The notes under the pieces: model-generated
Seen by the model: only the letters and a program-made list of their open reading frames with translations
What the model was told of the DNA's origin: nothing
Databases searched by the model: none
UHGV virus genome: UHGV-1686243
Length of the DNA stretch: 24,442 bases
Direction: 5' to 3' (one strand)
Origin: a virus
Position numbers and translations under genes: made by a program
Shown here: piece after piece, positions 10,178-24,442 of the stretch
How the letters are laid out: each line of letters opens with the position of its first letter
Numbering within the stretch: the stretch's first letter is position 1

Positions 10178-10187
10178 TTTCTAACAT
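10178..10187 (-). promoter_or_regulatory. GTTAGAAA motif copy (minus-strand orientation), adjacent to 7-bp inverted repeat AGTGTAT/ATACACT
   Basis: Plus-strand TTTCTAACAT is the reverse complement of ATGTTAGAAA. It lies in the intergenic region after the protease/scaffold-like gene. Confidence 0.3.
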
Positions 10188-10270
10188 AGTGTATTTATAT
10201 ACACTGTTGATCCTGGTGGATGGGATCGAGTAGGATCGCGGTCACTGCTCCGGTAGCGACTGCCAAAAAA

Positions 10271-11322: not shown

Positions 11323-11375
11323 CCTGTGCGTCTACAAAACATCCCAATGATCGGAAAATGCTCTCTCAATAATTT

Positions 11376-11386
11376 GTGTTAGAAAA
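11376..11386 (+). promoter_or_regulatory. GTGTTAGAAAA motif copy, preceded by ATGCTCTCTCAATAATTT
   Basis: Exact motif in the intergenic leader upstream of the small ORF / antirepressor operon, followed by TTAATTT. Confidence 0.35.
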
Positions 11387-11736
11387 TTAATTTGCTGTTT
11401 CTAAATCGGAATGTATGATCTGCATCATCGACTGAAATCATCCATTGCTGAAATTTTTAGTTGATCTTCCATGTTTTCAGGCTTATATTCATGTCGTCGT
11501 AGCAAATTCTGCGACCGGGTTTAGCAGCCTGAATACGAATGCGGACAACCGCAGATATCCGATATTGCGGTATTTTTGTGTCCGTAAAACCACGTTACGC
11601 CCGAATTATGGTGGGGCGTGATGGGGAGGCTTCGGCCTGCTGGTTTCATTCGTGCCAGTCTGCTAACCCCGTCACGTCCTGCCACCCGTTTAGCAGCGGG
11701 GCGCAGGTTGTTAAACCTACGAATGAGGCCGTAACT

Positions 11737-21241: not shown

Positions 21242-21736
21242 TTGTTGTTATTATTTCGCATATTTACTATCAATGGGTGTGTTAGAAAAATAGCGCGAAA
21301 GAGAAGGCGTCGCAGTGAATATTCTGAAACATCCCCACATGCCGCAGCTCTTAGAGAACTGGAGAAAAACCCAGATCTAATCAAAAGGAACCATGAGCAT
21401 TACGAGCAGGTTCGCGTCCTGGACTGGATGTATCGCAATATGCGTTATGTGTATGAGCATACTCACGCCACTCCAAACGGTGGCCTGCGAGGCATAAGGA
21501 CGGCAATAAAAATGGTGGCAGAGGGCCAAAAGAAGGGATATCCCGATCTTTCTATAGACCTTGCTTGTGGGGGATACCACGGAATGCGCATTGAGATGAA
21601 ACATGGGAGAAATCGCCTGACTCCCGAACAACTCGTCTGGATGACTCGCCTCACAGAAGCCGGTTACTACTGCTTTGAGGCGCGCAGTGCCGCTGAAGCC
21701 ATAAAAGCTATCACGGAGTATGTTTGTCTTGATTAA
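21242..21736 (+). CDS. VRR-NUC domain nuclease (PD-(D/E)xK superfamily)
   Basis: C-terminal ~100 aa ...GYPDLSIDLACGGYHGMRIEMKHGRNRLTPEQLVWMTRLTEAGYYCFEARSAAEAIKAITEY fit the VRR-NUC signature. The start is uncertain: there is no in-frame ATG or GTG before the domain, only TTG 21242/21245, and a motif copy lies inside the predicted N-terminus. Confidence 0.55.
   Translation: MLLLFRIFTINGCVRKIARKRRRRSEYSETSPHAAALRELEKNPDLIKRNHEHYEQVRVLDWMYRNMRYVYEHTHATPNGGLRGIRTAIKMVAEGQKKGYPDLSIDLACGGYHGMRIEMKHGRNRLTPEQLVWMTRLTEAGYYCFEARSAAEAIKAITEYVCLD
21279..21289 (+). promoter_or_regulatory. GTGTTAGAAAA motif copy upstream of / within the 5' end of the VRR-NUC frame
   Basis: Exact motif match. Confidence 0.3.
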
Positions 21737-22282: not shown

Positions 22283-22321
22283 TTATTGCATCTTCCGATA
22301 CCGTCATCAAACTAATAAAAT

Positions 22322-22332
22322 ATGTTAGAAAA
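22322..22332 (+). promoter_or_regulatory. ATGTTAGAAAA motif copy 28 nt upstream of the 407-aa gene start, preceded by CTAATAAAAT
   Basis: Exact core GTTAGAAAA followed by CTAATTT. Its position is consistent with a promoter or operator for the gene starting at 22361. Confidence 0.4.
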
Positions 22333-22360
22333 CTAATTTAACAAAGTGACGGGAACAGCA

Positions 22361-23569
22361 ATGAGTCAACACACTGATACTTCTAATCTGGAAATTATCT
22401 CGACAGCAATTGAAACGCTGCGCACACAAATCGCTCTTATACAGAAACGGAATCCGGGTGATGACCTGTCAAAGCGACTGCACGAGAGTGTCATTGCCAC
22501 TACAGATAACCTGGTGGCGGAAATCAACAAGCTGCTTGATGATGGGGCAGTTGATTACAATAAGCTGGTGGATCAGTTTGAGGAATACCAACAAGCCGTT
22601 AATGATGGCTTGATCCGTTTTTCACAAGTCACAGGCGTATCAGCGACAGTTGAAAGCCTGGGCGATGCAGTTAATCAATTTGCCGCGAATATGCGTAATG
22701 AGATCGGCAATCTGGAAGCGCGTCTTGAACAGGCAAATACACTGCGTAAATCTGCCGAAGCCGATTTGAACCGTTACAAAAAAGACTATCCGCCAAGCCT
22801 GACAAAGCGGCTGGATGTTGCGGAGAAGGATAACCGCACGCTGAAAAGAGAGCGCCGGGAACTAAAAGAGCGTTTAACCAAGCTCAATCAGCAATGCATT
22901 GATTATCAAGGCGAAGGCGTCACACTGCGTAAAAAGTTGGCTACAGCGCAGAGCATTATCGAAACATTAAAGCGAGAGTGTTCACAGCTTGGTCACGATC
23001 TGAACCGTGCTTGTGGCATGGGACAAAGACCAGAGACATTTCCACTTATGTATGATGGAAGGGATGCCATTGCCTACATCCATGAGTATCCGCACGGCCT
23101 GGTTGCGGAAACTGGGCAGCGTGGCGAAGCACTGCTGACGGCTAATTACCATCAACAAATCAGAACTAATCGCCTGTTAACGATGGATGTGATCCCATCG
23201 GTATGGGGAACGCCGCTTTACTATCGCCTGCCGGGCTTCGAAAAGGACTGGAATACCGACATAGACGAATGTCTCGCAGATAAAATTATGGCGTACCTGG
23301 AGACGGATTTTCCGCGCTTATATCGCCGGATTATGGACTCTAAGGATGCGCCAATCGATGAATTAAAAATGCGTCCGGAGACGCTGGAGGCAATCAAGCA
23401 GACGGAGTTTGATACTGTATTCAGTGTGGCCTGCATTCCAAGCTGTTTCCATGAAAGCATTCCGTTCATGCAAGGAGATCGTCGTCAGGAAATCATTGAC
23501 GCTTGCCGGGTATGGGCGAACGAATGGGATAAGAAGAATGGGGGTGTAGAAGATCTTTACGGGAAATAA
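22361..23569 (+). CDS. coiled-coil protein of unknown function (403 aa)
   Basis: ATG 22361 is preferred over the GTG 22346 used in the ORF track. N-terminal ~220 aa are heptad-rich; the C-terminal half has no recognisable motif. Confidence 0.55.
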   Translation: MSQHTDTSNLEIISTAIETLRTQIALIQKRNPGDDLSKRLHESVIATTDNLVAEINKLLDDGAVDYNKLVDQFEEYQQAVNDGLIRFSQVTGVSATVESLGDAVNQFAANMRNEIGNLEARLEQANTLRKSAEADLNRYKKDYPPSLTKRLDVAEKDNRTLKRERRELKERLTKLNQQCIDYQGEGVTLRKKLATAQSIIETLKRECSQLGHDLNRACGMGQRPETFPLMYDGRDAIAYIHEYPHGLVAETGQRGEALLTANYHQQIRTNRLLTMDVIPSVWGTPLYYRLPGFEKDWNTDIDECLADKIMAYLETDFPRLYRRIMDSKDAPIDELKMRPETLEAIKQTEFDTVFSVACIPSCFHESIPFMQGDRRQEIIDACRVWANEWDKKNGGVEDLYGK

Positions 23570-23570
23570 T

Positions 23571-23581
23571 GTGTTAGAAAT
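23571..23581 (+). promoter_or_regulatory. GTGTTAGAAAT motif copy
   Basis: Match immediately after the stop of the 407-aa gene. Confidence 0.3.
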
Positions 23582-23726
23582 CTAAAATCACAATTCGAAT
23601 GTATTGATTGTGAAGATGACTTAACATAGAATTTTCCTTGCTGGTGGGCGGTACCCACGTTTCGCTTGCTGGGCTTGATAGTCACTTATTGGTTATTGTT
23701 TGCCCACCAGCAATTAACAAATTAAA

Positions 23727-23737
23727 GTGTTAGAAAA
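23727..23737 (+). promoter_or_regulatory. GTGTTAGAAAA motif copy followed by GTATAGT (-10-like)
   Basis: Exact match in the ORF-poor region. Confidence 0.35.
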
Positions 23738-24221
23738 GTATAGTAAGCCAAGAGCACGCTTTGGCACCGAGCAGACCAAAGTTCAACAGGTTTAGTGCGG
23801 AAAGTGGTTTCAGAGAGAGCACTTTGCGGAGTAAACGACAATACATGTTGAGCCACGGAAGGTCTTTTTAAGGTGTTCATTGATGATGGTCCGGCAGAGA
23901 GTAACGGTACATGCTGCATCTAATCATCAATGCACATCTTCAACATTAAGGAGGCATAGGGATTTTTGTGGCGGTTACCTTTTGCCCTGAGTCTCCTTAA
24001 TGTTGCAGTAATGCACCTATGCGGATGTGGCCTTGCATTGTGTCTTGAAAGAATGGGGTAAGGCCGGGGATATCCCCAGGGGGAGGCACCCCCGCTGCAA
24101 CGAACAGCCACAGACGGCAGTCGAGTGATGGAAACGTGCAAAGACTTTAAACCTCGTTACGGCTGGCGTGGCAAACGCGACAACCGAGACAGAGCGGTGA
24201 CGGGCGGAGAGAGTGCCGCAT

Positions 24222-24343
24222 CAAGAAAGAAGCCGACTTGTGATCCCTTTCAGCGGGCATTTGAAAGTGAATCCAGCTCAGGCAGTCGGCTTCTTTCTTG
24301 TGTGAGATGTAGCGTATTTGCCCATCTTCGGGTGGGCTTTTTT
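24222..24343 (+). ncRNA. candidate small RNA: 17-bp perfect-stem hairpin followed by a UUCG-loop intrinsic terminator
   Basis: CAAGAAAGAAGCCGACT (24222-24238) and AGTCGGCTTCTTTCTTG (24284-24300) are perfect reverse complements. GCCCAUC-UUCG-GGUGGGC plus U6 lies at 24320-24343. No credible ORF. Confidence 0.25.
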
Positions 24344-24442
24344 AGGGTTTTCGTCATGGTTAGCGACTTTGCGGCGGTTTAGAACCCGACCATTAAAGTA
24401 AATGCAAACGATGATCTGATGATGGTAGCGGCCTAAGAAGCC

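Follow-up and report, generated by a model that had tools for sequence, protein, structure and literature searches.

A conserved hairpin and an intrinsic terminator that may close a structured operon-leader RNA in a D6-type phage-plasmid

The virus genome UHGV-1686243 was analysed as a stretch of 24,442 nucleotides, referred to here as the window, and near its end the + strand carries a 79-nt hairpin followed by an intrinsic terminator. The original prediction, made from the letters of the DNA, took the pair for a candidate structured small RNA (sRNA). The structural half of this proposal is borne out by the comparison of relatives, in which the hairpin is preserved as an RNA structure, while a discrete sRNA gene consisting of hairpin and terminator is not supported, since no promoter lies close by and the two parts are separable. 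They are better described as the 3′ end of a structured leader RNA of about 600–700 nt than as a stand-alone gene, and processing of this leader could release a small 3′ fragment. The parts in question are as follows.

24222-24300, + strand: the hairpin, a rod of 79 nt made up of three helices, the outer of 17 bp and the middle and inner of about 6 bp each
24301-24319, + strand: the linker, UGUGAGAUGUAGCGUAUUU, single-stranded in the minimum-free-energy and centroid structures
24320-24343, + strand: the intrinsic terminator, GCCCAUC-UUCG-GGUGGGC-U6, identified by a terminator scan and common to P1

These elements lie in a long non-coding gap after a pmgS-like gene (22346-23569). The last 873 bases of the window match phage D6 at 98.5% identity and many non-mobilisable Escherichia coli plasmids of about 90 kb at 100%, and on this basis the window is assigned to a phage-plasmid of the D6 type (P1-like). 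The D6-type part at 24100-24345 was present in 98 of 5,426 complete E. coli genomes, every time on a plasmid. The relatives compared are P1 (L001), phage D6 (L002; NC_050154.1), further D6-type relatives (L003-L009), a Pantoea plasmid (L010), Klebsiella phage Kp4865-1 (L011) and the Qin locus (L012).

The hairpin had been picked out as a 17-bp perfect inverted repeat, and its arms at 24222-24238 and 24284-24300 are indeed 100% complementary, with 45 nt between them. With loops of 3–60 nt allowed, no other perfect inverted repeat in the 24.4 kb of the window is as long; in 60 dinucleotide-preserving shuffles the longest inverted repeat was 13 bp, reached once, and the commonest maximum was 10 bp, and the repeat is not a chance event. 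The same intergenic region also holds the next two in length, of 13 bp at 23941-24005 and of 12 bp at 23638-23713. The folding energy of the segment 24215-24345 is −53.1 kcal/mol, with z = −4.7 relative to shuffles, and the 79-nt rod has an apical loop of 9 nt and a conserved 3′-side bulge, (N)CUCAGGC. Ten distinct variants of the hairpin were obtained from plasmid and viral collections, each exactly 79 nt in length. Their outer stems are of three types, CAAGAAAGAAGCCGACU, CAAGAUAAAAGCCGACU and CAACAUACAAGCCGAUU, and the 3′ arm changes in step each time. Compensatory changes of the stem arms, which the original prediction had named as its own test, are thus present among these variants: eight pairs are changed on both sides, standard pairs fill 93.4% of the cells of the three-helix rod model as against 35–52% with slid partners, and the covariation score is 0.206 compared with 0.091 in shuffles, none of 500 of which reaches the observed value. 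Where the outer helix changes on one side only, C is always replaced by U and a U.G pair results; as this pair (A.C on the opposite strand) forms only in + strand RNA, the + strand RNA is favoured. The hairpin is a conserved, selected RNA structure.

A DNA-level palindrome with no function in RNA, serving as a protein-binding site, a cruciform or a recombination junction at module boundaries, would fit the perfect 17-bp arm pair as well as the mosaic breakpoints, which coincide with the edges of the hairpin (a segment termed module B ends at 24221 and the insertion of module D follows 24300). This explanation is nevertheless highly improbable, because the one-sided changes are U.G-compatible on the + strand only, the imperfect inner helices and the asymmetric bulge are also conserved, and the hairpin is one of a row of similar G.U-rich stalks, across which (23740-24345) the + strand folds 31.6 kcal/mol better than the − strand (−228.6 kcal/mol, z −5.0, versus −197.0 kcal/mol).

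The terminator lies where it had been placed, with GCCCATC-TTCG-GGTGGGC at 24320-24337 and T6 at 24338-24343, spaced 19 nt from the hairpin, and it has the composition of a Rho-independent terminator, with a 7-bp stem containing five G-C pairs, a UUCG loop and the U6 run. Every D6-type and P1-type sequence has it, in some cases with changes that preserve the pairing, such as GCCCACC/GGUGGGU, or with the loops UCCG and UUAG, and it is found, such variants included, in 20 of the 22 upstream contexts of the module that lies downstream of it. The linker sequence differs among lineages (L006, L008, L009 and P1) and only its 3′ UUU is conserved; the (U)UUU directly 5′ of the terminator stem reads UAUUU in the window. 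A U-rich stretch followed by a terminator hairpin and a U6 tail is the 3′-end architecture of Hfq-binding sRNAs, and the same order is seen here, with UAUUU, the hairpin and a U tail of the at least six residues expected. A conserved single-stranded seed of the kind that characterizes Hfq-dependent trans-acting sRNAs was not found in the linker at 24301-24319, which varies between lineages. For an antiterminator alternative to the terminator stem, inspection gave just a weak 6-bp option (GAGAUG/CAUCUU). Pairing of the hairpin 3′ arm GGCUUCUU with UAAGAAGCC at the stop codon of the tag-like frame described below was rejected, since the arm varies by lineage and the partner is constant.

The stable, covarying structure and the Hfq-type 3′ end (U-rich stretch, terminator and U6) would suit a self-contained trans-acting sRNA gene of about 120 nt with its own promoter, pairing with messenger RNA of the host or the phage as DicF pairs with ftsZ, and the element also takes the position that DicF holds relative to the pre-DicF element in Qin. 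We consider such a gene decidedly unlikely. The promoter scan of 23400-24442 gave no site within about 100 nt upstream of the hairpin and nothing promoter-like between 23633 and 24222; the adjoining DNA is dispensable, as module B, directly upstream, is missing from L008 and L009; the distance between hairpin and terminator is 120–195 nt in L006-L009; and the linker, the would-be seed, is not conserved. A covariance-model search against Rfam, suggested as a check in the original prediction, gave no family match, DicF included: the DicF model RF00039 had no match at E ≤ 10 in the window region, P1 or D6, and no other sRNA family matched at that level, whereas the positive control, DicF proper in Qin (L012 2622-2673), scored 76.7 bits (E = 4e-17). 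Permissive Rfam scans of the window region, P1 and D6 gave no credible family for hairpin or terminator, and matches to STnc240 (25 bits on the − strand, threshold 55) and MicA (22 bits, threshold 41) were dismissed as noise. Pairing with ftsZ, assessed by duplexfold and by longest helix, was not above shuffles, in tests that are underpowered, as the DicF control was likewise not above shuffles. The pre-DicF element is present in P1 and L006-L009 and absent from the window, D6 and L003-L005; identity with DicF was rejected on the grounds that the covariance model does not match and that the precursor element is lacking in the window.

The arrangement in relatives bears on the same point. In L006-L009 a module of 120–195 nt stands between hairpin and terminator, and P1 has the interposed module and the terminator with the 79-nt hairpin absent, so that the two are separable parts and not one unit. 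The DNA upstream of the hairpin is modular as well.

24103-24221, + strand: module B, present in the window, D6 and L003-L007 and absent from L008 and L009 in the alignment
L010 1501-1613 and L011 1501-1572: copies of module B in the Pantoea plasmid and the Klebsiella phage

Positions 24103-24212 are about 81% identical to these two copies, which are non-coding, and the module ends in a hairpin with a GAGAGA-type loop and compensatory stem changes; module B is a mobile non-coding segment.

A GTG-started open reading frame (ORF) of 85 amino acids does run through these structures at 24125-24382, and the original prediction had already doubted that it is coding. That it encodes a small protein, the structures being incidental, would agree with a frame that is open in the window, D6, L003 and L004; in these alone is it open. 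Codon 35 is a stop in both L006 and L007, the latter with a further stop at codon 5, L005 has multiple stops, the start region is deleted in L008 and L009, and the Pantoea and Klebsiella copies of the 5′ part stop after 11 codons. The product had no match in a Pfam search and a PHROG match of just 0.046, and no Shine–Dalgarno sequence was seen by inspection. As the frame is broken or absent in relatives, it is taken to be non-coding, and a protein-coding explanation can practically be dismissed.

The leader RNA proposed here is defined by the following features upstream of the hairpin.

About 23570-23581, + strand: operator-like site 1, GTGTTAGAAAT, right after the pmgS stop codon, kept in L002, L006, L008 and L009
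23604-23632, + strand: sigma-70 promoter TTGATT-N17-TAGAAT from the promoter scan, with conserved hexamers and spacing
23726-23744, + strand: operator-like site 2, AGTGTTAGAAA, with a −10-like TATAGT, conserved in all D6-type variants
23795-24101, + strand: body of the leader, structured as a series of long conserved hairpins, with GGGGAUAUCCCC and GGGGG-AGGCA-CCCCC at its end

The promoter is the sole promoter-like site in 23400-24442 and lies about 590–600 nt upstream of the hairpin; its hexamers and 17-nt spacing are kept in L002, L003, L006, L008 (as TAAAAT) and L009, and its spacer diverges. The motif (T/A)(G/A)TGTTAGAAA occurs in intergenic DNA at 11375-11385, 21278-21288, 22321-22331, 23570-23580 and 23726-23736 on the + strand and at 10178-10188 on the − strand. 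Its core, (G/A)TGTTAGAAA, resembles the reverse complement of the P1 C1 operator, and its copies lie upstream of immI (like P1 Op51) and of other operons and bracket the leader promoter; it is probably the operator of a D6-type C1 repressor. The P1 C1 operator consensus ATTGCTCTAATAAATTT had no match in the window at up to three mismatches. In L008 operator-like site 2 reads CTAACA-N17-TATAAT with the operator motif inside the spacer, and site 2 is possibly a second, operator-overlapped promoter, by analogy with P1 Op72 over P1ban/P2ban. Because the conserved promoter is bracketed by operator-like motifs, we infer that the leader would start near 23639 and/or 23751 under the control of a repressor, giving an RNA of about 600–700 nt that ends at the terminator.

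As predicted by RNAalifold for five divergent variants, the leader body consists of conserved stalks of about 20–25 bp with indel-variable loops and many G.U pairs, four pairs being changed on both sides; counting the flagged hairpin, which comes last, the leader thus has at least four such stalks. The GC palindromes noted earlier, GGGGATATCCCC at 24066-24077 and GGGGG-AGGCA-CCCCC at 24079-24093, are located in it. Two further observations concern the leader. The 12-bp inverted repeat GCUGGUGGGCGG.../...CCCACCAGC (23638-23649/23702-23713) closes the first ~75 nt of the predicted leader, and its ends GCUGGUGGG/CCCACCAGC are kept in all D6-type variants with a differing interior. The leader shares with the STnc100-like region, upstream of tciA in D6 and P1 and of dicB in Qin, a hairpin of 5 bp whose pentaloop reads AGGCA and after which comes GC(N)GCAAC. 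The loop is the same throughout and the stems differ (GGGGG/CCCCC and CCUGG/CCAGG); the positions are as follows.

Window 24079-24101: AGGCA-pentaloop hairpin of the leader
L002 6050-6170: AGGCA-pentaloop hairpin in D6
L001 4226-4345: AGGCA-pentaloop hairpin in P1
L012 2671-2880: AGGCA-pentaloop hairpin in Qin

Taking these features together, we lean, without great assurance, towards an untranslated leader in which the 79-nt hairpin is a processing stalk for RNase III and the terminator is a leader terminator with partial read-through. When the phage repressor is lifted, transcription would start at the sigma-70 promoter just after pmgS (23604-23632) and run along the + strand through the stalks to the terminator at 24320-24343, beyond which come a tag-like module, the phage genes for transfer RNA (tRNA), tciAB and other genes of the operon in which P1 has ban. 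The long stalks, including the 79-nt hairpin, would be processing sites and stabilizers, most likely cleaved by RNase III; with its 17-bp perfect helix and about 12 stacked pairs, the hairpin has the near-continuous helix of at least about 20 bp of an RNase III stalk. Part of the transcripts would stop at the terminator and yield a stable leader RNA, comparable to the 190-nt DicF precursor or lambda 6S RNA, and the remainder would read through, first into the tag-like module and then into the tRNAs and the genes that follow. Cleavage of the stalk together with termination would leave a 3′ fragment of about 45–60 nt comprising the U-rich stretch, the terminator hairpin and the U6 tail, for which a trans-acting role is conceivable but lacks support, as the would-be seed varies between lineages. 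Read-through is suggested by P1, in which the expression of ban comes from the Op72-controlled promoter about 2.6 kb upstream; the polymerase must therefore be capable of getting past the terminator.

Several points weigh against this interpretation. The start site, repressor control, termination efficiency, processing by RNase III, partial read-through and any trans activity are all predictions, and the assignment to RNase III is by analogy, through position and shape. A strong terminator in an operon leader needs a mechanism of read-through, and none was identified here. The operator-like motif occurs eight times against 6.3 expected at up to two mismatches, which is not significant alone, so that the operator argument rests on the location and conservation of the sites. 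The covariation of the hairpin derives from roughly three independent lineages, and compensatory change could be mimicked by templated repair of a DNA palindrome.

The need for read-through raises the alternative of a conditional cis-acting device, namely a regulated attenuator whose read-through a phage or host factor would switch, by processive antitermination of the Q, N or put-like kind, with the stalks, the flagged hairpin among them, as an RNA signal that loads or modifies the polymerase. A strong terminator between a promoter and genes that need expression suits this alternative, as do the two adjacent GC hairpins, the recurrence of the AGGCA-pentaloop hairpin upstream of tciA and dicB, and the occurrence of the homologous downstream module behind terminators in lambdoid late-operon leaders, after Q genes and PR′-like promoters. 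We know of no Q-type antiterminator for a leader of the P1/D6 type, however, and no antiterminator gene was found for either P1 or D6; the 5′ arm of the terminator has no convincing alternative partner; and P1 has the terminator without D6-type stalks, so that the stalks cannot be essential for read-through. A device of this kind appears unlikely, and the leader with a processing stalk and a leaky terminator remains the reading that we prefer.

The wider setting agrees with the assignment to the D6/P1 type, which is supported by an immunity RNA locus, C4/immI, of the P1 type. At gathering thresholds its two RNAs are the sole Rfam families in the whole window (11483-11689).

11483-11535: c4-a1b1 RNA, above the Rfam threshold at 52.2 bits, of a P1-type immI system
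11604-11689: C4 antisense RNA, above the Rfam threshold at 71.9 bits, of the same system

Downstream on the same strand, D6 has tRNA-Asn, tRNA-Thr, a tRNA-Ser-like gene, tciA, tciB and then a tRNA with the anticodon CAT, called tRNA-Met by ARAGORN. Three tRNA features in the D6 record NC_050154.1 (L002 5235-5940) are annotated on the strand opposite to that given by ARAGORN and Rfam, probably a strand error in the deposited annotation. Between tRNA genes, inserts of 60–130 nt are bracketed by imperfect long-range stems, CACAAC(A/G)(G/T)TAAG(A/G)G...C(T/C)(C/T)TT(A/T)(A/C)CGTTGTG, and some of the inserts hold T-arm-like GGTTCGAAT motifs; the stems look like processing stalks around decayed tRNA-like elements.

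L002 5385-5470: long-range stem around an insert
L134 2915-3000 and 3325-3425: long-range stems around inserts
L010 1620-1760: long-range stem around an insert

Immediately beyond the terminator begins a conserved module that resembles the tag-encoding part of transfer-messenger RNA (tmRNA).

24347-24442 and past the window end, + strand: start of the conserved module, with the 5′ box UUUUCGUCAUGGUUAGCGA (24351-24369), UAAAU and the tag frame at 24404-24436
L002 4778-4970 and L001 3034-3225: continuation of the non-coding module of about 190 nt

The tag frame, GCA AAC GAU GAU CUG AUG AUG GUA GCG GCC UAA, encodes ANDDLMMVAA*, has no in-frame start codon and is preceded by UAAAU; genuine tmRNA genes of Legionella have exactly the same 17-nt resume context, and Rfam gives a weak tmRNA_permuted match at 24331-24436. 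The part of the module in the window is identical in P1 and all D6-type sequences, and P1 and all D6-type elements hardly differ in the ~490 nt that lead from the terminator up to the first tRNA, a stretch with compensatory hairpins. The frame has 10 codons and TAA in 131 of 132 copies, the exception being one error-ridden record, and the differences among copies, across phage families, are synonymous or conservative; divergent tags are ANDNTFLAVA (Vi01), ANDNAYLAVA (SKML-39), ANDNEFKVAA (phiEa2809), ANDDVVLMAA (Bp4) and ANDDYKLAAA (a Rosenbergiella prophage). Covariation is seen in the hairpin that follows the tag stop codon. The module matches 446 phage records from unrelated families, in which it is essentially unannotated, and is also found in late-operon leaders of lambdoid prophages, downstream of Q and PR′/tR′. 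In all 22 upstream contexts a stable structure abuts its 5′ box; in the P1 and D6 types this is the present terminator, in Rosenbergiella a different terminator, in lambdoid prophages a hairpin of 11 bp, and in L334 the 3′ end of a tRNA. As a side observation, module B contains AUGCAAACG, which resembles the resume context of the tag, and a 6-codon mini-frame that reads ANGKGR* in Pantoea and Klebsiella (with only two differences, both synonymous) and GNVQRL* in the window; this mini-frame may represent a further tag-like unit that has degenerated.

A tmRNA around the tag, whether complete or permuted, was rejected on the basis of ARAGORN, which found no tmRNA in 20 phage-type loci or the window, and of the Rfam tmRNA models, which reached just 21–34 bits on the module against thresholds of at least 47. 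No T-loop motif was found in the P1 or D6 stretch, and the ‘tRNA-Ala’ of Bp4 is a tRNA-like element in degenerate form, without G3.U70 and without CCA. A PK1-like pseudoknot upstream of the tag (GGGUU/AACCC, AUGGU/ACCAU) is likewise unsupported, as its variable positions do not covary and its pairing is broken in the lambdoid and Rosenbergiella versions. It is a tentative thought, which we find more doubtful than convincing, that the terminator marks the 5′ boundary of a widespread phage RNA that is a genuine trans-translation tag template without a tRNA-like domain, its frame AND(D/N)xxxx(A/V)A being under purifying selection at the peptide level. This frame is found in P1/D6-type phage-plasmids, lambdoid prophages, Vi01-like myoviruses, N4-like podoviruses and several siphoviruses.

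In conclusion, the hairpin and terminator belong to a well-supported modular structured leader RNA located before phage tRNA and replication genes, a leader that was partly foreshadowed by the annotation of P1. The 20-year-old label ‘dicF-like region’ in P1 can be corrected on the basis of the alignments, which point to a homologue of the DicF precursor segment, not to DicF, ending in a different terminator module. P1/D6-type phage-plasmids are common in clinical E. coli and Salmonella, and the model predicts how they would meter an early operon through a repressor-controlled promoter, RNase III stalks and a leaky terminator. The larger pay-off may lie in the adjoining tag-like module, since an SsrA-like tag without a tRNA-like domain would be remarkable if it were decoded: phages would then reprogram or hijack ribosome rescue, the RNA could be a split tmRNA with a host-supplied or not-yet-recognized acceptor piece or a decoy for SmpB/tmRNA, and the hairpin and terminator would be the signals that define the 5′ end of the tag RNA and dose its expression. 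In the literature searched there is no mention of a tmRNA-like phage element of this kind, of the ‘dicF-like’ P1 RNA or of a P1/D6 leader RNA, and a template in use would connect phage infection with ribosome rescue in a manner not described there.

Comparison with known systems places the individual parts. The module shares with Legionella tmRNA the resume context UAAAU-GCA-AAC-GAU-GA and with tmRNA in general a 10-codon AND...AA tag frame that lacks a start codon and is followed by a covarying hairpin, whereas it differs from tmRNA in that no tRNA-like domain was detected and in that it is embedded in operon leaders beside tRNA genes. The lambda PR′–6S RNA–tR′ unit is likewise a short non-coding transcript with a strong terminator before a long leader, and in lambdoid prophages a tag-like module also stands behind such terminators or hairpins; the promoter in the window, however, is apparently controlled by a repressor (early) rather than constitutive, and its leader is far longer and contains long stalks. 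In RNase III sites such as T7 R1.1, the ribosomal RNA stalks and lambda sib, as in the flagged hairpin, a near-continuous helix of about 30 bp with small internal loops sits between functional RNA modules of a polycistronic transcript, a likeness of shape.

From 24317 on, the window is about 96% identical to P1 68855-68982, within the P1 feature annotated as ‘dicF-like region’. The P1 ban-operon leader (‘dicF-like region’, 68791-68892) has the same terminator, GCCCAUCUUCGGGUGGGC with its U run, followed by the downstream module and tRNA genes, and the terminator takes the same position in the leader of a repressor-controlled operon (tRNA/tci/ban), about 180 nt downstream of the C1-controlled P1ban/P2ban (Op72). 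These ~180 nt of P1 include a pre-DicF-like element and have neither the 79-nt hairpin nor D6-type stalks, whereas the window has no pre-DicF-like element and different operator motifs. Most E. coli chromosomes hold a match of about 95 nt to the P1 region, located between ydfC and dicB; in Qin the match is the segment of about 100 nt just upstream of DicF (L012 2501-2597). DicF has no counterpart in P1 or D6, and the GCCCAUC...GGUGGGC terminator takes its place.

In Qin, a 190-nt DicF species has a 5′ end made by RNase III and a 3′ end made by termination, a 53-nt species is made by RNase E, and transcription passes the DicF terminator into dicB (PMC10448788). Directly before the homologous element Qin has a long imperfect hairpin, in the same place as the 79-nt hairpin in L006-L009, and the 5′ end of the 190-nt species is calculated to fall in the 3′ arm of this hairpin, on which matching position the proposal of an RNase III stalk is based. 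Qin thus resembles P1 and L006-L009 in the ~100-nt homologous element, which in Qin is preceded by a long hairpin (the RNase III site) that has no sequence in common with the flagged hairpin. As in the arrangement proposed for the window, the DicF locus of Qin combines an sRNA-like 3′ module with an intrinsic terminator in a repressor-controlled prophage operon, and transcription reads through to the genes downstream.

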